Shown: in pieces, positions 9,071 through 32,718 of the stretch | How positions within the stretch are numbered: position 1 is the first letter of the stretch | Layout of the letters: the number at the start of each line of letters is the position of its first letter | Assembly: GCA_021799495.1 (NCBI GenBank) | Contig: JAJZAI010000012.1 | Span: forward strand, 4,292 to 68,291 | DNA length: 64,000 nucleotides | Source of the DNA: Deltaproteobacteria bacterium | GTDB taxonomy: Bacteria; Desulfobacterota; Binatia; Binatales; Binataceae | Reading direction: 5' to 3' | Notes under the pieces: generated by a model | Databases searched by the model: none | What the model was told of the DNA's origin: nothing | What the model saw: the letters and a program-made list of their open reading frames with translations, nothing else | Program-made: the position numbers and the translations under genes

Positions 9071-10267
9071 TCAGGTCGTGTATTCCGCGTTGATCTTGAC
9101 GTAACCATAACTCAAATCGCAGGTCAGAATCCGCGCGGCGGCCTTGCCGAGCTTCAAATCGACGGTCAGCGCGAACTCGCGATCGCGCATCCGTTGCGCG
9201 GCGGCGGCGAGCGCTTCGGTATGGAGCGCGCCGCGGCTGGCGAGCTTGATGCCGCCCATCGCGACTTCGATCCGATCGAGATCGATCGCGACGCCGGCCT
9301 TGCCGACCGCCATCAGGATTCGGCCGAAGTTGGGATCGCATCCGAAGAACGCGGTCTTGACCAGCGGCGAATTGGCGATTTGCCGGGCGACGCGATCGGC
9401 GTCCGAAGCGCTGCGCGCGCCGCGCACCTCGACGGTGACGAGCTTGGTCGCGCCTTCGCCGTCGCGCACCAGTTCGCGGGCGAGCGCCGCGGAAATTTCG
9501 GCCACCGCGGCGTTGAAGCGGCCGAGCTCGCGCCCTTCGAGCGGGCGATTGCCGGCGGCTCCGGAAGCCATCAGCAACAGCGTGTCGTTGGTCGACATGT
9601 CGCCATCGACGGTGACCGCGTTGAAGCTGCGCGGCAGGGCGTCGCGCAAGGCGCCCCGCAGAATCGCGGGCGAGACGGCGGCGTCGGTCATCACGAAGGC
9701 GAGCATCGTCGCCATTTTCGGCTCAAGCATGCCCGCGCCCTTGGCGCATCCGGCGAGCGTCACCTCTTTGCCGCCGAGCCTGAGCGTGGCCGAGGCGACT
9801 TTCGGACGCGTGTCGGTGGTCATGATGGCGCGGGCGAAATCCTCGAGCGCGCCGGGGTTGAGCGCGGCGGCCGCGGCGGAAATTCCCTCGCGATAGCGGA
9901 CGAGATCGTACGGCTGTCCGATCACGCCGGTCGAGCAGGGCGCGACCAGTTCCGGCTTGCATCCGAGCACTTGCGCGAGCGCGGCGGTCGAATCGAGCGC
10001 GAGCTTGAGGCCGGGCTTTCCGGTGAAGCAATTGGCCGAGCCGGAGTTCGCGCCGACCGCCCGCAGCCGGCCGCGGCGCACGCGCTCCTGCGCGATCAGC
10101 ACGGGCGCGGCCTTGACGCGATTGGTCGTGAATACGCCGGCGGCCGCGGCGCCGGAATCGGCGGCGATCACGCCCAGGTCCTTGCGGTCCGGTTCGTTGC
10201 GCAATCCGGCGGCGACCCCGGCGAAGCGAAAGCCGGGCACCGCCGCGGGCTCGAGTCGTACGTCCAT
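9071..10267 (-). CDS. argJ: Bifunctional glutamate N-acetyltransferase / amino-acid acetyltransferase
   Basis: GFRFAGVAAGLR N-terminus and the autoprocessing region GMLEPKMATMLAFVMTDA. Length is about 400 aa. Confidence 0.9.
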   Translation of the reverse strand: MDVRLEPAAVPGFRFAGVAAGLRNEPDRKDLGVIAADSGAAAAGVFTTNRVKAAPVLIAQERVRRGRLRAVGANSGSANCFTGKPGLKLALDSTAALAQVLGCKPELVAPCSTGVIGQPYDLVRYREGISAAAAALNPGALEDFARAIMTTDTRPKVASATLRLGGKEVTLAGCAKGAGMLEPKMATMLAFVMTDAAVSPAILRGALRDALPRSFNAVTVDGDMSTNDTLLLMASGAAGNRPLEGRELGRFNAAVAEISAALARELVRDGEGATKLVTVEVRGARSASDADRVARQIANSPLVKTAFFGCDPNFGRILMAVGKAGVAIDLDRIEVAMGGIKLASRGALHTEALAAAAQRMRDREFALTVDLKLGKAAARILTCDLSYGYVKINAEYTT

Positions 10268-10329
10268 CTAAACCTCCGCGCGTGGATTTAACATGCGCGG
10301 CGGCTGCGATCGACCGGCGCAAGTCGGCG

Positions 10330-12996
<2,667 letters not shown>

Positions 12997-13091
12997 TGTG
13001 TGCGATTAAACCTGGAAAGAAGCGGCGCCCGCATCCGGGCCAATTCCATCGTTTGATTCTAGCGCATGAGGCCCGCGATTGCAGCGGCGCG

Positions 13092-13997
13092 CTAACGTTC
13101 GATTCGGACGGCGGATTCCACCTCCGGCCCCAGAAAACGCCGCCCCACCCGCACGAAACGGTCGGGCGTCTCGGTCACGAAAAAGCTCCGCGACCGCGCC
13201 CCGCCGCGCCCGCGATCGAGCCCCAGCGCCCTGAGCCGTTCCCGCACGGCGTTTGCGGTCGCGGTCGCCGAATCGACGATTTTCACCCGTGGGCCAAGCA
13301 CCCGCGCGAACATCGTCCGCAGCAGCGGATAGTGCGTGCAGCCGAGCAGGAGCGTGTCGATTCCGCTCGCTTTGAGGCTTTCGAGGTAATAGGCGACCGT
13401 GCGCTCGGCCACGTCGTTGTCGGTCCATCCCTCTTCGACCAGGGGCACGAGCAGCGGACACGCGCGCGTGTAGATTTCGGCGCGCGGGCGGAGCTTCTGG
13501 ATGGCGCGCGTGTAGGCGCCGGACGCGATCGTCGCCTCGGTGCCAATCACCCCGATTTTGCCGCTGCGCGACGCCGCCGCCGCGGCGGCCGCGCCCGGTT
13601 CGATAACGCCGATCACCGGCGCCATCGTGCCGCGCGCGATTTCCTCCAGCGCGACCGCGCTCGAGGTGTTGCACGCCACCACCAGCATCTTGATTCCCTT
13701 GGCCAGCAGGAACTCGGTGTTTTCGCGCGAATAGCGCACGATTACCTCGTTCGACTTGCTGCCGTAGGGCAGCCGCGCCGTGTCGCCAAGATAGACGAAA
13801 TCCTCGCCGGGCAGCAGCGCGATCAATTCCTTCAGCACGGTCAGGCCGCCGATTCCGGAATCGAACACGCCGATCGGCCGCATCCGCGCGTCGGCCGCAT
13901 GGCGCGTGATCCGGCCGTCGCCGCGCGCGAGTTTGACGACGGTCTTTCTTGCCGCGAGATCGCCCGGTGCAAGCACGCGCCGCTTTCGCTTAGCCAT
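13092..13997 (-). CDS. murI: Glutamate racemase
   Basis: IGVFDSGIGGLTVLKEL, VVACNTSS and LGCTHYPLL catalytic cysteine motifs. The start is uncertain: 13997 overlaps the upstream gene by 8 nt, and ATG 13883 gives a canonical-length protein. Confidence 0.85.
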   Translation of the reverse strand: MAKRKRRVLAPGDLAARKTVVKLARGDGRITRHAADARMRPIGVFDSGIGGLTVLKELIALLPGEDFVYLGDTARLPYGSKSNEVIVRYSRENTEFLLAKGIKMLVVACNTSSAVALEEIARGTMAPVIGVIEPGAAAAAAASRSGKIGVIGTEATIASGAYTRAIQKLRPRAEIYTRACPLLVPLVEEGWTDNDVAERTVAYYLESLKASGIDTLLLGCTHYPLLRTMFARVLGPRVKIVDSATATANAVRERLRALGLDRGRGGARSRSFFVTETPDRFVRVGRRFLGPEVESAVRIER

Positions 13998-15096
13998 CGC
14001 GTCGCTTTCCATCCGCGAGGGCGGCGCCAAGCGCGGCCGGCGCCGGCGGCGCCGCGCCCAGCACGCGCCGGTATATCGCGGCGTTCTCCATGCACAGGTA
14101 CACCCTGGCGCCCGATTTTTCCCTGGCGATCCGCCGGTTGATCGCCTCGTACAGGCGCATCCGCAGCGGCGCGAACGCGCGGTAGCGCCCGTCCGGCGCC
14201 AGCACCTCCTCGCCCAGCAGCATCGGATCGCGCGGAAAGCGGCGGCGCGCCGCGGCGCGCAGGCCGGGCGTCATCCTGAGGCCGCCGAGGCTGATGAACT
14301 CGATGCGCGCCGTCGGGACCGCCGCGAACACTTCATCGAGCAGCGCGGAATAGTCGCGCTCGGCGCCGTCGCAGGCGATTATCGGATCGAGATGGAACCC
14401 GACGCGGTAGCCGGCCTCGAGCACGCGCCGCGCCGCCGCGATACGCGCCGCCGGCGGGGCCGTGCGATGCTCGCTCGAGCGGAAAACGCGCTCGGGCGAA
14501 AGCGTCCACGAAACCAGCGTGCGGCCGCGCGAATCGATCTCGAGAAGATTTTCGATCTCGTCGGTCTTGGTCTTCAGCTCCAGCGTCAGGTCGTCGCGCC
14601 CAGCGAAATAGCGCACGAGGTCGCGGCTCATTCCGGTCAGCGAATCGAACGCCAGCGAATCGGCAAGCTCGCCAGTGCCGATCCTGAGCGGCCGATCGGC
14701 GCCGGCCCGGACGCGGTCGAGTTCGGCGAAGGCGTCGGCGTAATTCGCATAGACCTGAAATCCGGGATTGTCCGCGACGAACTCCTGCAGGAAGCAATAG
14801 CCGCAGTCCATCGGGCAGTTCGACGCCAGTTCCATCACCAGGTAGCCGCAGCAGGCGAATTCATTCGATGCGGCCGGGCAGCCGGTGAGAAAGCGCGACC
14901 GCCGGCGCATGATCACCATCCGGCGCTTGCCGGCGGCGAAGGGATCGGCGGCGGCGCGATCCGCGCGCGCGGCGATCCGGCCGTCGGGAACGTGACGGAT
15001 CGGCACGCCGGGCGGCAGCGCGGCGATCACGCGGCGGGCCAGCGCCGTCGCGCGCATCTCTTCTTCGACGTAAACCGCGTCCAGTTCAAATCTCAT
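13990..15096 (-). CDS. Spore-photoproduct-lyase (SplB)-family radical SAM protein
   Basis: Radical SAM cluster motif CPMDCGYC (CxxxCxxC) within ELASNCPMDCGYCFLQEF. Size and layout fit the SPL / DNA-photolyase-like radical SAM family. ATG at 15096. Confidence 0.7.
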   Translation of the reverse strand: MRFELDAVYVEEEMRATALARRVIAALPPGVPIRHVPDGRIAARADRAAADPFAAGKRRMVIMRRRSRFLTGCPAASNEFACCGYLVMELASNCPMDCGYCFLQEFVADNPGFQVYANYADAFAELDRVRAGADRPLRIGTGELADSLAFDSLTGMSRDLVRYFAGRDDLTLELKTKTDEIENLLEIDSRGRTLVSWTLSPERVFRSSEHRTAPPAARIAAARRVLEAGYRVGFHLDPIIACDGAERDYSALLDEVFAAVPTARIEFISLGGLRMTPGLRAAARRRFPRDPMLLGEEVLAPDGRYRAFAPLRMRLYEAINRRIAREKSGARVYLCMENAAIYRRVLGAAPPAPAALGAALADGKRRDG

Positions 15097-15640
15097 CGTC
15101 GTTCCAACCCACGCCCGCGACCAAATCCGCGATTCGCGCCAGCTCCGCCGCCCGGCGCGAGAGCGCGTCAAGCAATCCTCTCAAGTCCTCGCTCCCATGC
15201 GCGGCCAGCTCGATTCTGATTTCGCCGGAGGCAAGCTCGCGCGGCGGCGCAATTCGGATTCCGCGCGGCAGGCCCAGCGCCGCGATTTCGCACGTAATCC
15301 GCTCCGTCGCGCGCGCCAGGCGGGGAAATCGAATGGCGCGCAACGCTCCAAGCAGCGCGGCGGCGCGGCCCGGTCCCGAGCCGCTTCCGTCCAGTATCCG
15401 CCGCACCTCGGCGCGGGCGAGAATCGCGGCGACCGGACGCGCGTCGCGCACGGAAATTTCTTCCATCAAATCGAACGCCGCGATCAACTGCCCCGCGCGC
15501 ATCCTGAGCCCCACGGCCGTTTCGAGCAGCGCCGCCCGATCCTCAGGGCCAAGCTCCAGCCATCGCGCCAGATACGGCGCAGGCAGCCGCCGCGCCGCAG
15601 CCCACTCGCGAATCGCCGCTTCATCCGCTGGAGCGCTCAT
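15086..15640 (-). CDS. Hypothetical protein (Ala/Arg/Leu-rich, no recognisable motif)
   Basis: ATG 15640 overlaps the upstream GT2 stop (ATGA). The stop overlaps the SPL-family start by 11 nt. High GC3 in this frame. No motif recognised. Confidence 0.5.
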   Translation of the reverse strand: MSAPADEAAIREWAAARRLPAPYLARWLELGPEDRAALLETAVGLRMRAGQLIAAFDLMEEISVRDARPVAAILARAEVRRILDGSGSGPGRAAALLGALRAIRFPRLARATERITCEIAALGLPRGIRIAPPRELASGEIRIELAAHGSEDLRGLLDALSRRAAELARIADLVAGVGWNDDEI

Positions 15641-23554: not shown

Positions 23555-23771
23555 ATGAACCCCCGAGAACTGTCCCCATCGCCAATCTTAGGGCGATGGC
23601 GGCGGATGCGCAAATCAGTCAAATCTATCTGACGCGCCGAAATTGACGCATCACGGCGAAAATCCGCCGGCGACGCCGCCGCATGGAATCGGCCCGCCGC
23701 GACCGCTACGATAACGCCTTAATCTCTTGCGCCAGCCGCGGCCCGCCCGAGGCCGGCTTTACGGAACTTCG

Positions 23772-24932
23772 ATGGCCCGAAATACACCGTCAGTCGAGCG
23801 GATCGCCGGCGCTCGCATCAATCCCGCCGGAGTCACCGGACGCATGTCCGCGGCGGATCTCGTCGATACCGCCTTTCTCGCCTACAATGGCCGCCGCTTG
23901 CGCGAGGCCTGCCGCCTGTTCGCCGAAAAAATGCTCGCCGATGACGTCGTCGTCGGCGTCAGCCTGACCGGCGCCTTGACGCCGGCCGGACTCGGAATGT
24001 CCTGCATCATTCCGCTGATCGAAAACGGCTTCATCGACTGGATGGTCTCGACGGGCGCCAATCTCTATCACGACGCCCATTTCGGGCTGGGCCTGAAGAT
24101 GTACCAGGGTTCGGCGGAAGCCGACGACGTGGCGCTGCGCAAAGCGGGCGTGGTGCGGATTTACGATATTTTTTTCGATTACCGGGTGCTGCTCTCCACC
24201 GACGCCTTCTTCCGCGAAATCGCGCGCCAGCCCGAGTTTCAGCGCGCGATGGGCACGGCGGAATTCCATTACCTGGCGGGCCGCTACGTCGCCGAGCGCG
24301 AACGCGTGCTCAAGCTGCAACGCCGCTCGCTGCTGGCGGCGGCGTACAAGCATGCGCTGCCGGTTTACACCTCGTCGCCGGGGGATTCGTCGATCGGGAT
24401 GAATCTGGCGGCGCTCGAAATCGAGGGCTACGAACTGCGCATTGACCCGCTCACCGACGTCAACGAAACCGCCGCGATCGTGTACGACGCGAAAGCGCGC
24501 GGGATGAAGTCGGCGGTATTCATCCTCGGCGGCGGATCACCGAAAAATTTCATGTTGCAGACCGAGCCGCAGATTCAGGAAGTGATGGGCGTGGCGGAAA
24601 AAGGCCACGACTATTTCCTGCAGGTGACCGACGCGCGGCCCGACACCGGCGGACTCTCGGGCGCGACGCCGGCCGAAGCGGTCAGTTGGGGTAAAATAGA
24701 TCCCGATCGGTTGCCCGATTCCGTGGTCTGCTACGTTGACAGCACGGTCGCGTTGCCCCTGATCACGGCCTACGCGCTCGCCCGGCGCAAGGCGCGCAAA
24801 CCGCGCCGGATGTACGAGCGGCGCGACGAGATGATGGCGCGGCTCAAGTCGTCATACGAAAAGGTGCTGCGCAAACGCGCCGCCGCCGAAGCCAAAGCGG
24901 CGCGCGGCGCGAAAAGGAAAACCGCGGAATGA
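23772..24932 (+). CDS. Deoxyhypusine synthase-like protein
   Basis: [41 protein letters not shown] and [10 protein letters not shown] are characteristic of the DHS family. ATG at 23772. Confidence 0.8.
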
Positions 24933-28191: not shown

Positions 28192-29208
28192 TCAGCCGTT
28201 CATCTGCTTGCACAGCCGCCGCCAGATCGCGTCGTCGAACGCGGCCTTGTACGGCACGTAAAAGTTCACGCGATCGAGCAGGCCGTCGAAACGCTCCCGC
28301 ACCTTCTCGCCGATATTCTCGTAGGTGCCGGTGACCGCGTAAACGTCGAGCATCTCGTCCGTAATCAGCTTCGGCATCCCGGCCCAATCGCCCTTGGCGG
28401 CGAGTTCGTTGAGCTTCGGCGCCACGTCGCCCCATCCGTGCGTTTCGAGCACCACCTGGTACGTGCGGGTCGAGGCGTAGAACGAAATCTGCTGGCGCAC
28501 GCCGGCTTTGGCGCGTTCGATCTCGTCGGCGTTGCGGCCGACGATCACGAACGGCGTCGTGGTGATCGTGAAGTCTTTGCGCGCCCGTCCCGATTTCGCG
28601 AGACCTTCATGGATATGCGGCACGAGATACTCGCGCAGATATTTGGCGGAAGTGAACGGATGGGCGTGCAGGCCGTCGCAGATTTCGCCCGCCATCCGCA
28701 GGATATGCGCGTTCACGCCCGCAACGTAAATCGGAATCTGATAGTTGTGCGGCTTGGGCGCGAAGAACGGCGTCATCAGCGACAGGTTGTAGAATTTGCC
28801 CGCATACGAAAGTTTTTTCCCGCCTTCCTGCCAGCACTTGAAAATCGCGCGGAGCGCCTGCACGTAATCGCGCAGCTTCGCCACCGGCGGCTCCCATTTT
28901 ACGCCGTAGCGCCGCTCGATATGGCCTTTGACCTGCGTGCCAAGTCCCAGGATGAAGCGGCCCTTCGACAGCGCGCTCAGGTCCCACGCCGCGTATGCCA
29001 TCGCCATCGGGCTGCGCGGAAAAGCGATCGCGACCGCGGGGCCCAGCTTGACGCGCCGCGTATGTTCGGCGGCGATCGCCAGCGGCAACATGCCGTCATT
29101 GCCCGCCTCCATCGACCAGATCGCGTCGAAACCCTGGTCTTCGGCCTGGCGCGCCAGTTCCGCGACCTCCCTCAGGTCGCGCGTGGTGAGAGTCGTATCG
29201 AGCTTCAT
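28192..29208 (-). CDS. Luciferase-like monooxygenase (LLM) class flavin/F420-dependent oxidoreductase
   Basis: MKLDTTL...AELARQAEDQGFDAIWSMEAGNDGMLPLA and the TIM-barrel LLM layout. The cofactor (F420 or FMN) cannot be decided by eye. Confidence 0.75.
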   Translation of the reverse strand: MKLDTTLTTRDLREVAELARQAEDQGFDAIWSMEAGNDGMLPLAIAAEHTRRVKLGPAVAIAFPRSPMAMAYAAWDLSALSKGRFILGLGTQVKGHIERRYGVKWEPPVAKLRDYVQALRAIFKCWQEGGKKLSYAGKFYNLSLMTPFFAPKPHNYQIPIYVAGVNAHILRMAGEICDGLHAHPFTSAKYLREYLVPHIHEGLAKSGRARKDFTITTTPFVIVGRNADEIERAKAGVRQQISFYASTRTYQVVLETHGWGDVAPKLNELAAKGDWAGMPKLITDEMLDVYAVTGTYENIGEKVRERFDGLLDRVNFYVPYKAAFDDAIWRRLCKQMNG

Positions 29209-29295
29209 CATAATGCTCTCCGTCAGTTTCGATTTATCGAAAGACGCCGAATCCTAACAAAAGCCCGCGCGCGCGGGAAAGCTCATTCTCGCGCT

Positions 29296-31779
29296 TCAGA
29301 GGGCGCGCACGGCGCCTTCAACCCGCCGCGCGAGCGCGGCATAGTCGTCGCCGCTCAATTCGATCGGATCGCCGAACGCCACTTCAACCGCGCCGCGCCG
29401 AATCCATCGCGCTCCGCGCGGCAGAACGCGATCGACTCCGCGGAGTCGCACCGGCGCCACCGCGACGCGCATCCGCGCCCCGATCATTCCAACGCCGGCA
29501 TGGAATGCTTCAACGTCGCCGGTGGTTGAACGTTCGCCTTCAGGAAAGATTAAAATCGACCACCCGTCGCTGACCAGATCGCCGATGTGGCGCAACGAGC
29601 CGCGCAGGCCGATTTCTTCCTGTGAAATCGGAAATGCGTTGAAGACCAGCATCGCAAGGTAAAGCGCGGCGGCGCTGGCCGCGCGGCGCGCGCGCGATCG
29701 GCCCTCCGGATGGAAATGCGCGTCGAAGAATTCTCGCCACATCGCGGGCGCGATCCGGTAGCGCCATCGCCGCGGCAAGGCCGCAAGTATCACCGGAGCG
29801 TCGAGATGGCTCTGATGGTTCGCGGCGAAAATCAACGGTCCCTTGAGCGATTCGATCCGGTCGAGGCCGCTGACACGAATTCGCGCGGCCCTGCGGGTAA
29901 GCGGAATGACAATCGCGCCGAGCAGGATACGCCGAAGCAGCCGCGCCGGCGCGCGTCGATTCCAGTCCGCGATACCCGCGTCCTCCGTCGGCGGCGCGGC
30001 GCCGGCGATCCTCGCGGCCAGGTCGCCCACGCGAATCGCGCCGCTCAATGCGCTTTCGTCAACCGCCAGGTTGAACCGTTCTTCGAGATCGACCATCAGC
30101 TCGACCTGCTCGAGCGAAGTGAGGCCCAAGTCGTCGAGCGTGGTCTCATCGTCGATTCGCCGCGCCGGCGCATACTTGCGCAGAATCGCCGCAATCTCGC
30201 CCGAAGGACTCGACGCGGCCGGCGGCGCGCCGCCGTCGACCCAGCGCTGAATCGCGGCGCGCATGAGCTTGCCGGCGCCTTCGGTGCGCGGCAACTCGCC
30301 GTTTGTCCAGACGGATACCTCGCGAATCCGCTGATGGTCTTCGAGCGCCGCGTTCGCGCGGCGCACGATCTCCTCCGCATTAACGCCTGGATCGAGGACC
30401 AGCACCGCATGCACCCGCTCGCGGCCGACCGCCGCGGAATCGCGCACGCCGGGAATTCGGTTGAGCGCGAGTTCGACATCCTCTGGAAAGACCTTGAGGC
30501 CCTCCGGAGTGACGATCAGCTCTTTTTTGCGTCCGCGAATCGTTAGGTAGCCGTCCGCGTCGATCGCGCCGATGTCGCCCGTATGAAACCATCCGTCCGC
30601 GAAGGCTTCCGACGCCGCCGCGGGCGCGTTGAAATAACCAGGCGTAACGATATCGCCGCGCACCAGTATCTCGCCGTCAGGCGCAATCCTGAGCTCTACG
30701 CCGTCCAGCGGTTTGCCCACCGTATGCGGCTTCAGGTGAAACGGATGGTTGAACGAAACGATCGGCGCGGTCTCGGTCAGCCCGTAACCCTGCACCACCA
30801 TGAATCCGAGTTGACGCCAGAAACGCTCGAGCCCGCGCTCCAATGACGCGCCGCCCACCACGAAGCCGATGAATTTAATTCCGAACAGGCGATGGATACT
30901 GCGATAGCGCAAGCGTCGCACGAACCATGGCGAATCGTCGCCGCCGATCTGAGCAAGTTCTGGAAATTGTTTGAGAACGAACTGCCGCAGCAGCTCGAGC
31001 ATCTTCGGCGCGCCGACCATGAAAGCGACGCGGCAAGCGCGAATCTGCCGGATGACGTCGCGCGCGGCGTAACTGCGCGTGAAAACCGCCGCGCCCGGAA
31101 GCATCGGCGGAAAAAATGTCGCGAGCGCCTGTCCGAACATATGGCTTAGCGGCATCAAGTCGAGGAACCGCAGCGGTCGGAGTATCCGCACCAGCCGCCG
31201 ATACTTCGCGACTTCCCGCTCAATCGGCGCGAGGTCGGCGACGATATTGCGATGCGTGATGATCACGCCCTTGGGCGCCGCCGTCGAACCGGAAGTGAAA
31301 ACCAATTCGACGGCGTCGTCCGGCGCGATCGCGGCAGGCGAGATGCGAAGCGAAGCGGAATGCGCGGACAGATCGATCTCGGCGAGCCGCCAGACCGGCG
31401 GACTATCGCCGAGCGCGGCGGCCTCAACCTCTTCGCCGACTACAATCGCGCGCGGACGAACGGCTCGCGCGACGTTTCGCATCGCTTCCGCCGAAAACCG
31501 GTAATCAACGGGTACGACGATCACGCCGCACCATACCGCGCCCCAGAAAGCCGCAAGCCATTCAGGCCGGTTTTCCGACCAAATCAGGATTTTGTCACCT
31601 TTGGCGATTTCTGCGGCGCGCAGCTTGACGGCAAAGGCTTGGGCCGATTGCGCAATTTGACGATAGGAATAGCTCCATCGCCGAAACCCGTCGTCGTAAA
31701 CCACGAACTCAGACTCGCGGTCCGCAAATTCGGAAAAGAAATCGACAAGCGTACGTCCGGCCGGATTCGAGTTCGTCAT
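29296..31779 (-). CDS. Tri-domain fusion: acyl-adenylate-forming enzyme (AMP-binding) + phosphopantetheine carrier domain + PlsC-type acyltransferase
   Basis: The AMP-binding core is FTSGSTAAPKGVIITHRNI, with GYGLTE and GDIG..DADGYLTIRGRKKE. The carrier motif is LDDLGLTSLEQVELMVDLEERF. The acyltransferase HX4D box is FAANHQSHLDAPV, with FPEGERS. Confidence 0.85.
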   Translation of the reverse strand: MTNSNPAGRTLVDFFSEFADRESEFVVYDDGFRRWSYSYRQIAQSAQAFAVKLRAAEIAKGDKILIWSENRPEWLAAFWGAVWCGVIVVPVDYRFSAEAMRNVARAVRPRAIVVGEEVEAAALGDSPPVWRLAEIDLSAHSASLRISPAAIAPDDAVELVFTSGSTAAPKGVIITHRNIVADLAPIEREVAKYRRLVRILRPLRFLDLMPLSHMFGQALATFFPPMLPGAAVFTRSYAARDVIRQIRACRVAFMVGAPKMLELLRQFVLKQFPELAQIGGDDSPWFVRRLRYRSIHRLFGIKFIGFVVGGASLERGLERFWRQLGFMVVQGYGLTETAPIVSFNHPFHLKPHTVGKPLDGVELRIAPDGEILVRGDIVTPGYFNAPAAASEAFADGWFHTGDIGAIDADGYLTIRGRKKELIVTPEGLKVFPEDVELALNRIPGVRDSAAVGRERVHAVLVLDPGVNAEEIVRRANAALEDHQRIREVSVWTNGELPRTEGAGKLMRAAIQRWVDGGAPPAASSPSGEIAAILRKYAPARRIDDETTLDDLGLTSLEQVELMVDLEERFNLAVDESALSGAIRVGDLAARIAGAAPPTEDAGIADWNRRAPARLLRRILLGAIVIPLTRRAARIRVSGLDRIESLKGPLIFAANHQSHLDAPVILAALPRRWRYRIAPAMWREFFDAHFHPEGRSRARRAASAAALYLAMLVFNAFPISQEEIGLRGSLRHIGDLVSDGWSILIFPEGERSTTGDVEAFHAGVGMIGARMRVAVAPVRLRGVDRVLPRGARWIRRGAVEVAFGDPIELSGDDYAALARRVEGAVRAL

Positions 31780-31875
31780 CTGATTTCTCGCGATTCCGCC
31801 GGATCAAGCGCGGGCCGGTCGTCGTCTCCATGTAACGGCGACTGGCAAATCCCGGCATTTAATCGCTCTATTTAG

Positions 31876-32718
31876 TTAATCTTGGAGACGGTGCGAGAAA
31901 CCAGAGTCCGTGATGATTCCGTCCACGCCGATTTGCAGCAGGGCGCGCATCTCGGCGGCGTCGTTGACCGTCCAGACGTGAACTTCGAGGCCGGCGCGAT
32001 GGGCCGCGGCGACGCTTTCCGCCGTCGCCAGCTTCCATCCGTGATATTCCGGCGGAATCTGCAAAGCGGCGCCGCGCGGCAAATAGGGGCCGGCGCCCGA
32101 TGGCAGCGAGCGAAAAAATTCGCCCGTTTCGAGACTCGGCAGATTTGTCGGGATAAAGGGCGCGGCGGCGCGAATCTCGTCGATCGGTTCCTGGTGCTCG
32201 CTGGCGATCAGCACCCGCTCGATCATCCCGGCCCACTCGATCGCGGCCAGCAAGCGCTCCGTCAGACTGGGCGATGATTGCTTGATTTCAATTATGAAGC
32301 GCTGGCGAGCGCATCTATCGAATACTTCTGCCAGTTCGGGAACCTTCACTCCCGCGCCGCGAAACGGAAATTCGGCGCGTCCGGGCGCGACAAAGTTATA
32401 GCCGGCGTCGTAATTGCGAAGTTCGTCGAATGCGAGTTCGACGATCCGGCCGGGCCGGCCCGCCATCCGTTCGAGATCGTCGTCATGCGCGACCACGATC
32501 CTGCCGTCGCGCGTCATGTGCACGTCAAGTTCGATATAGGCGACGCCCAAATCCGCCGCGGCCGCGAACGCCGGCATCGTGTTCTCCGGGAAGGCGGCGC
32601 TGGCCCCGCGATGCGCGATTATTCGCGGATGCGGTCCGGCAAAGAATTCGCTCTTCATGGCAATCATTAGCCCGAAACCGACCTCGCGCGGACGGGCGCT
32701 GGCGCCCGCGGCCCTCAC
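31876..32718 (-). CDS. Glycerophosphodiester phosphodiesterase (GDPD family)
   Basis: IIAHRGASAAFPENTMPAF...IELDVHMTRDGRIVVAHDDDLER signature. GTG 32718 overlaps the rpe stop (GTGA); alternative ATGs at 32667 and 32658. Confidence 0.85.
   Translation of the reverse strand: MRAAGASARPREVGFGLMIAMKSEFFAGPHPRIIAHRGASAAFPENTMPAFAAAADLGVAYIELDVHMTRDGRIVVAHDDDLERMAGRPGRIVELAFDELRNYDAGYNFVAPGRAEFPFRGAGVKVPELAEVFDRCARQRFIIEIKQSSPSLTERLLAAIEWAGMIERVLIASEHQEPIDEIRAAAPFIPTNLPSLETGEFFRSLPSGAGPYLPRGAALQIPPEYHGWKLATAESVAAAHRAGLEVHVWTVNDAAEMRALLQIGVDGIITDSGFSHRLQD

Follow-up and report, generated by a model that had tools for sequence, protein, structure and literature searches.

An adenylation–carrier–acyltransferase protein of the Binataceae, set apart from ElbD, Aas and the fatty acyl-AMP ligases and possibly acting in lysophospholipid salvage

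Introduction

Why should a bacterium build a fatty acid ligase, an acyl carrier and an acyltransferase into a single polypeptide, and what does such a protein acylate? The question is raised by a gene for an 827-residue protein in a 64,000-nucleotide stretch of DNA (the window) from a member of the Binataceae (GenBank assembly GCA_021799495.1, contig JAJZAI010000012.1, positions 4,292 to 68,291). We denote its layout A-T-AT, for the order adenylation – carrier – acyltransferase in one chain. An earlier note on this DNA had proposed that the protein activates a fatty acid, tethers it and transfers it to an acceptor. We find that the gene is real and intact, that it appears to belong to a sister family of the ether-lipid protein ElbD, and that it may re-acylate lysophospholipids.

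The A-T-AT layout is known and common. Other phyla are reported to have ElbD-like homologues that lack the reductase, whose lipids have been analyzed little or not at all (PMC9131029), and split elbD genes occur among Poribacteria and Acidobacteria of soils (bioRxiv 10.64898/2026.06.23.733905). The novelty claimed earlier thus falls as regards the layout, which is already on record, and stands in that no characterized A-T-AT protein with a defined product was found in the literature that we could search, largely without subscription papers. New are the finding that the family stands apart from ElbD, its altered motifs, its accessory distribution and a partial link to gene islands. Judged by their defining features the protein belongs neither to ElbD nor to Aas nor to the fatty acyl-AMP ligases (FAALs), while in its proposed working it comes closest to Aas.

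Results

The gene and its domains

The features of the gene are listed here with the evidence for each.

29296–31779, minus strand: whole A-T-AT gene, 827 aa (open reading frame list, Pfam, homologues, read contigs)
30244–31722, minus strand: adenylation domain, residues ~20–512, acyl-CoA-ligase type (Pfam, NCBIfam, conservation, PDB matches)
30007–30186, minus strand: carrier domain, residues 532–591, four-helix acyl carrier protein (ACP) fold (Pfam, structure model and comparison)
30115–30117, minus strand: Ser555 codon, predicted phosphopantetheine attachment site (conserved in 100% of 246 homologues)
29299–29952, minus strand: PlsC-fold acyltransferase domain, residues 610–827 (Pfam, conservation, fold match)
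29620–29622, minus strand: Gln720 codon, where stand-alone PlsC has its motif II Arg (alignment)

The open reading frame call and Pfam bear out the single frame and the order of three domains read by the earlier note, with AMP-binding at 20–383 (E = 3e-59), PP-binding at 532–591 (6e-9) and Acyltransferase at 633–779 (4e-14), all above cut-off. Every motif quoted there is present: FTSGSTAAPKG starts at residue 161, GYGLTE at 331, GRKKE at 416, NHQSHLD at 654 and FPEGERS at 745, and the carrier motif spans residues 549–561 with Ser555 within it. The adenylation domain has its P-loop at 161–171, YGLTE at 332, TGD at 400–402 and the A10 lysine at 504. The carrier domain is acidic (net charge −7 across residues 525–595), and Ser555 stands where its helix II begins. 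The acyltransferase domain contains His655 and Asp660, FPEG at 745–748 and Arg750, together with hydrophobic helices at 610–631 and 696–713, neither of which is a clear transmembrane segment.

The AlphaFold model of the protein has three folded domains. Residues 520–600 match carrier proteins with Z of about 10, and the C-terminal domain best matches Thermotoga maritima PlsC (Z = 18.9, rmsd 2.9, 186 residues aligned), followed by glycerol-3-phosphate acyltransferases (GPATs; Z = 17.6 and 15.9), PatA (10.4) and LpxM (9.9).

A protein search at E ≤ 1e-50 gave 6,338 clusters; the best 120 were full-length, and 119 of these are annotated with all three domains. Searching 50%-identity representatives added many further full-length relatives. 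Named matches are from Candidatus Binataceae (64% identity) and Acidobacteriota (about 50–56%), and the family has one cultured carrier, Acidobacteriaceae KBS 146. In 246 full-length homologues, with identity down to about 30%, Ser555 is conserved in 100%, and His655, Asp660, FPEG and the A10 Lys504 in 98–100%.

The domain junctions are free of insertions and deletions in contigs from four sequencing runs, of which X9 and X11 come from other studies than that of the window; the runs that match best are metagenomes from mine drainage and sediment, most of them marked as possible origins of this DNA. One low-depth X9 contig carries a compensating −1/+1 pair at 31393–31395. The indel-free contigs and the full-length homologues rule out a frameshift fusion of two genes, and the claim of a single polypeptide survives, the carrier serine being invariant and the junctions unshifted. 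This is an intact, real single-chain A-T-AT gene. Elsewhere in the family some copies are broken by frameshifts or stops (L238, L246 and L248, in genomes G607, G576 and G673); at L248 the adjoining island genes are broken too, which may be due to decay or to long-read errors.

Relation to ElbD

The genome of the window has its own ether-lipid genes. Contig C12 encodes a HAD protein (elbB), a Lar_N protein (elbC) and a 1,472-residue reductase-A-T-AT protein (ElbD), in the arrangement described for Myxococcus xanthus (PMC9131029). The presence of the full elbBCD set elsewhere in the genome makes the window gene an accessory paralogue. Over its last three domains ElbD of this genome is 29% identical to the window protein (871 columns). 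The C12 paralogue has a reductase domain; the window protein has neither an NAD_binding_4 nor a Sterile match in Pfam. No homologue of the reductase, elbB or elbC lies in the window, at 80 homologous loci or at 16 family loci.

We compared the two families in trees whose ElbD rows were picked by domain content and elbBC context, M. xanthus ElbD not being included. In the adenylation-domain tree (FastTree) the window family and ElbD form separate clades with a split support of 100; in the acyltransferase-domain tree they are again separate, with support of 97 for the ElbD clade and 88 for the window family. One protein lacking the reductase, L148, falls with ElbD in the adenylation-domain tree, and there are thus two kinds of A-T-AT protein, split ElbD and the family of the window. 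The reductase-free neighborhoods and separate clades rule out a split ElbD with its reductase next door. On these comparisons the window family appears to be a sister family of ElbD rather than a clipped ElbD. The two also differ in distribution: among 165 genomes of the bacterial family, 151 (92%) contain the reductase part of ElbD and 18 (11%) the A-T-AT gene.

The elbB-elbC-elbD cluster (L001:8203-15062, genome G000, contig C12) is intact, and occurs also at L209-L211. From the spread of its reductase part one would expect alkyl-ether lipids to be made by the Binataceae as a whole, an expectation not found stated in the literature searched. Directly after elbD, at L001:5945-8185, lie genes for a zinc phospholipase C/S1-P1-like protein, a PgpA-replacement-like dual-specificity phosphatase and a CDP-alcohol phosphatidyltransferase, which may together form a module that supplies the ether lipids with head groups.

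The adenylation and carrier domains

FAALs are marked by hallmarks that include a blocked canonical CoA pocket and a FAAL-specific helix (PMC8460268), and the earlier note had raised the question of a FAAL-specific insertion. There is none. Between YGxTE and GEI lie 31–33 residues in 197 family proteins, against 37 in ElbD and 67–70 in two FAAL controls, and the missing insertion rules out FAAL identity. FAAL models are absent from the top 25 NCBIfam matches of the window protein, while the control L205 does have one. The top NCBIfam and PDB matches of the domain are CoA ligases, the NCBIfam matches all below cut-off.

Three stand-alone adenylation proteins of 524–577 residues (L147, L149 and L153) are nested inside the A-T-AT family in the adenylation-domain tree, which suggests that they lost the carrier and transferase secondarily or were split from them. 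Separately, two Vicinamibacterales loci (L205:6717-9506 and L206:6511-9504) encode carrier – FAAL – PlsC-type acyltransferase fusions of 929–997 residues with a true FAAL insertion, in genomes that also carry the A-T-AT family of the window.

The carrier needs a phosphopantetheinyl transferase, a check proposed in the earlier note, and one is present: AcpS is encoded on contig C35. No Sfp-type transferase was found in the genome by a PF22624 profile search. Only three carrier domains occur in this genome, those of the fatty acid synthase (FAS) ACP, ElbD and the A-T-AT protein. The genome also encodes PlsY and a separate PlsC, and its de novo phospholipid synthesis is therefore independent of the A-T-AT gene. 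No Aas-type gene is present among the three PF01553 matches of the genome.

Clues to the acceptor

Lysophosphatidic acid (LPA) acyltransferases carry an arginine in motif II, and K105 and R159 of T. maritima PlsC have been proposed to bind the LPA phosphate (PMC6688108). In 12 stand-alone PlsC-like proteins (E. coli PlsC, PlsC of this genome and ten others) the motif II and motif III arginines are present in all 12 and the lysine of the AKKE motif in 11; E. coli Aas lacks all three basic residues at these positions. In the window family Gln720 stands in place of the motif II arginine, in all members of the near clade and in 98% of the Acidobacteriota one, while ElbD has the arginine. Six residues further on, Arg726 is conserved in the near clade and might compensate. 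By spacing to a conserved Glu, the site of K105 is occupied by Trp681 followed by Lys/Arg682, in an uncertain register. Arg750 of motif III, kept in 86–100% of the two nearest clades, is the sole basic residue retained for certain. The clade of the window also has a specific insert of ~15 residues between motifs I and II. These substitutions are hinting at a shift from plain LPA toward a head-group lysolipid or a non-phosphorylated acceptor. The best NCBIfam matches of the acyltransferase part are Aas-type acyl-ACP–phospholipid O-acyltransferases, far below cut-off.

The locus and its neighbors

The surroundings of the gene comprise the following features.

29289–31903: presence/absence segment carrying the gene (joint 29288→31904; blastn against G112)
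31876–32718, minus strand: glycerophosphodiester phosphodiesterase (GDPD), upstream neighbor, kept at this site whether the A-T-AT gene is there or not
28192–29211, minus strand: F420-dependent LLM oxidoreductase (TIGR03617), downstream neighbor, which follows GDPD immediately where relatives lack the gene
29264–29277, minus strand: small hairpin resembling a terminator, past the stop codon; found also at the empty site of G112 and not above chance alone

The segment 29289–31903 is missing from the same-genus genome G112 and from a strain in run X11. In five relatives the GDPD and LLM genes lie 130–250 bp apart with nothing between them, and GDPD is not found near 80 mostly Acidobacteriota homologues. 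Given the empty site and this absence, a co-evolved GDPD – A-T-AT – LLM operon is unsupported, and the GDPD neighbor is weak evidence of function. The A-T-AT gene occupies three different points of the same chromosomal region in different genera. Either it is an old resident lost many times, or it has been inserted repeatedly; this three-point residence is what support is left for the operon. Checks for a mobile element showed no terminal repeats at the variable site and a GC content resembling that of the neighbors. A search upstream for FNR-like boxes gave nothing consistent.

An oxalate/monocarboxylate-type major facilitator superfamily (MFS) gene lies directly 3′ of the A-T-AT gene at 6 of the 16 family loci, often overlapping its stop codon, and one same-genus genome has the order GDPD – A-T-AT – MFS – LLM. 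The window has no adjacent MFS gene, and its copy may have lost this partner. Among the MFS proteins adjoining relatives, none matched LplT at E ≤ 0.001.

At 23727–24932 of the window (plus strand) a bacterial deoxyhypusine-synthase-like gene overlaps one of the inositol-monophosphatase family, and in two relatives the A-T-AT gene immediately follows a deoxyhypusine-synthase-like gene. A MCRA-family (oleate hydratase) gene (L226:2421-3992) lies 3.5 kb downstream of a distant homologue, on the same strand.

Low-oxygen gene islands

Several relatives sit among genes for Usp, CBS, BON, HSP20, NAPRTase, phosphoribosyltransferase, CapA-like and S30AE proteins, accompanied by PfkB, class II ribonucleotide reductase, RtcB, archease and baeRF. 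Two distant relatives (35%) directly precede a cation P-type ATPase (CtpF-like), and one of these has RtcB and archease nearby. We take Usp, CBS, HSP20 and baeRF to correspond to particular DosR gene numbers. Such families make up the DosR regulon of Mycobacterium tuberculosis and the lxa locus of Burkholderia cenocepacia (PMC5309233, PMC3721108).

At least two marker families lie within about 8 kb at 6 of 16 family loci, compared with none of 20 control windows drawn from the same genomes (Fisher p = 0.004); the markers were partly chosen from these same loci, and since loci of kin are not independent the p values for the islands are overstated. At loci not used to pick the markers the counts are 3 of 11 against 0 of 20 for at least two families (p = 0.037), and 6 of 11 against 4 of 20 for at least one (p = 0.11). 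The association is not seen in the window. Among 80 mostly Acidobacteriota loci, with 6-kb flanks, only one (L004) has at least two marker families. A family-wide link to dormancy islands is thus unsupported, holding in some clades only; the island link of the A-T-AT family is a lead, not a result.

In the genome of the window a NAPRTase – LonC – Usp cluster with no A-T-AT gene (L231, contig C28, about 10000-15300) resembles that adjoining the homologue P0033. Compact DosR-like islands lie in Terriglobia-type contigs (L216:79-18436 and L123:4357-16620), with three Usp, two CBS, HSP20, NAPRTase, isochorismatase, RtcB, archease, baeRF10 and phosphoribosyltransferases.

Discussion

The reading that we prefer, holding it in even balance, is that the protein is an accessory salvage enzyme that re-acylates lysophospholipids by means of its own carrier, Aas-like in its working but not an Aas. 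AcpS would prime Ser555 with phosphopantetheine. A free long-chain fatty acid and ATP would then form acyl-AMP on the adenylation domain, as expected from knowledge of the enzyme family and the motifs present, and the acyl group would pass in cis to the fused carrier, as has been shown in vitro with the corresponding part of M. xanthus ElbD. To judge from its motifs, the His/Asp acyltransferase would finally esterify the free hydroxyl of a lyso-glycerophospholipid at the membrane surface, the acceptor being more probably a head-group lysolipid (lyso-phosphatidylethanolamine or lyso-phosphatidylglycerol) than plain LPA. The private carrier would keep the salvaged fatty acid apart from the CoA and FAS-ACP pools. 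We thus retain the relay in cis of the earlier note as a reading suggested by the fusion and the conserved residues. A role in low-oxygen growth arrest in some lineages is offered tentatively.

Salvage is favored by the joint conservation of the catalytic residues of all three domains, by the fold of the acyltransferase domain, closest to PlsC and then GPATs, by its Aas-type best NCBIfam matches and its altered basic residues, by the PlsY and PlsC that serve de novo synthesis, by the restriction of the gene to 18 of 165 genomes, by the lack of an Aas-type gene among the PF01553 matches, and by the synthetase and carrier activity of purified M. xanthus ElbD without its reductase (PMC9131029). 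Several observations weigh against it. Acyltransferase activity was not detected in purified ElbD (PMC9131029), and the final transfer is consequently without biochemical precedent in the A-T-AT layout. In the acyltransferase-domain tree the window family does not group with Aas, so the likeness of their motifs reflects shared loss, not kinship. The MFS proteins adjoining relatives match oxalate/monocarboxylate (OFA) models, which rules them out as LplT. Two Acidobacteriota genomes hold both the A-T-AT family and a genuine Aas-LplT fusion, and with both enzymes in the same genomes the A-T-AT protein is not simply a substitute for Aas. Lastly, Thr or Ser precedes Ser555 where Asp is usual, and this atypical motif, with no Sfp-type match to PF22624, makes priming uncertain.

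The same relay might instead serve an acceptor that is not a lysophospholipid but a neutral or unusual lipid, such as a mono- or diacylglycerol, a glycolipid or a hydroxy acid, its product being a lipid for storage or protection during low-oxygen dormancy, in the manner of Tgs1 in the DosR regulon or the polyhydroxyalkanoate synthase in the lxa locus. We consider this unlikely. It would account for the fixed loss of the motif II arginine and the clade-specific insert, for relatives of three lineages lying in DosR/lxa-type gene sets with marker enrichment that persists at loci not used to pick the markers, and for the monocarboxylate-type MFS gene that follows at 6 of 16 loci. Yet Arg750, equivalent to a proposed phosphate ligand in T. 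maritima PlsC, is retained in the two nearest clades, the window copy lies outside any island as do all but one of the 80 mostly Acidobacteriota loci, and the enrichment suffers from the marker choice and kinship noted above. Decidedly unlikely is the stronger proposal of a self-contained, CoA-independent acylating lineage, distinct from ElbD and Aas, that travels with DosR/lxa-like islands and makes or repairs a lipid from an acceptor other than LPA. If true, it would be a lipid arm of the dormancy program outside mycobacteria, in soil and sediment bacteria of the Binataceae, the Terriglobia and a further class of the same phylum.

An auxiliary role in ether-lipid synthesis, as a split or clipped ElbD feeding a reductase in trans or as an enzyme acylating the lyso-alkyl lipid of ElbBCD, is improbable. 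The order of domains and 29% identity shared with ElbD of this genome would fit, as would the existence of split elbD genes and the presence of ElbD in 17 of the 18 carriers within the bacterial family. However, ElbD is found in 92% of that family anyway, and the carrier G008 (98% complete) has no ElbD match; the large acyltransferase frames of five Acidobacteriota carriers include nothing of ElbD type, and S. usitatus reportedly has no ElbD. The reductase, elbB and elbC are missing near the 80 loci, the clades are separate in both trees, and ElbD retains the motif II arginine.

More improbable still is a second de novo LPA acyltransferase, a PlsC duplicate channeling free fatty acids to phosphatidic acid: PlsC is the best structural match and HX4D, FPEG and Arg750 are intact, but of the basic positions that hardly vary among stand-alone PlsC proteins one is altered and a second apparently so, and the genome has its own plsC besides. 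That the protein is in practice a plain acyl-CoA synthetase, its carrier and transferase domains being vestigial, might be suggested by the missing FAAL insertion, the CoA ligases at the head of the PDB matches and the stand-alone adenylation domains, but is hardly credible when Ser555, His655, Asp660 and FPEG are 99–100% conserved even in the distant clade.

The distinction from ElbD has practical consequences. Surveys of producers of brGDGTs (branched glycerol dialkyl glycerol tetraethers) have used BLAST to M. xanthus ElbD at ≥30% identity (PMC11868695), and a family about 29% identical to an ElbD over three domains may inflate the counts of producers; to separate them one has to look for a reductase domain and at the residue in motif II. 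The acyltransferase step of ElbD, never reconstituted, also becomes testable with a soluble relative of three domains that has one cultured carrier. Should the island link hold, it would point to unrecognized lipid remodeling in dormant soil bacteria.

Comparison with known systems

The comparison with Aas and ElbD drawn earlier (reversed order relative to Aas, built-in carrier, no reductase) holds. E. coli Aas (b2836) resembles the window protein in that a single chain combines a ligase with an HX4D acyltransferase; the motif II arginine is missing from both, as is the PlsC lysine from Aas and, in an uncertain register, apparently from the window protein, and both kinds often have an MFS gene next downstream. 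In Aas, however, the acyltransferase is N-terminal and there is no fused carrier, whereas the window protein has the opposite order and a carrier of its own. Against the Aas NCBIfam models (NF006386, NF005291 and NF005959) it scores 143–150 bits, with cut-offs of 1221–1349; its acyltransferase domain falls outside the Aas clade; and the partner of Aas is LplT, adjacent or fused, which the MFS partner of the window family is not.

Myxobacterial ElbD (MXAN_1528-type) runs reductase – acyl-CoA synthetase – ACP – AGPAT-like, its last three domains ordered as in the window protein, and its ligase too is of the non-FAAL kind. The window family differs in having no reductase and no elbB or elbC neighbors, in forming a separate clade in both trees, in the Gln at the motif II Arg position and the insert between motifs I and II, and in being accessory within a bacterial family where ElbD is near-core.

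Like FAALs that load fused ACPs, the window enzyme is predicted to load its carrier rather than release a diffusible product, but it has the short spacer of 31–33 residues where FAALs have the insertion. With T. maritima PlsC (PDB 5KYM) the acyltransferase domain shares its fold, the HX4D and FPEGxR motifs and the arginine equivalent to R159. It departs from PlsC in the fusion to ligase and carrier and in the loss of the motif II arginine; Lys105 has as its counterpart Trp681 or Arg682, and the match starts at PlsC residue 38, the first anchoring helix having no clear counterpart.

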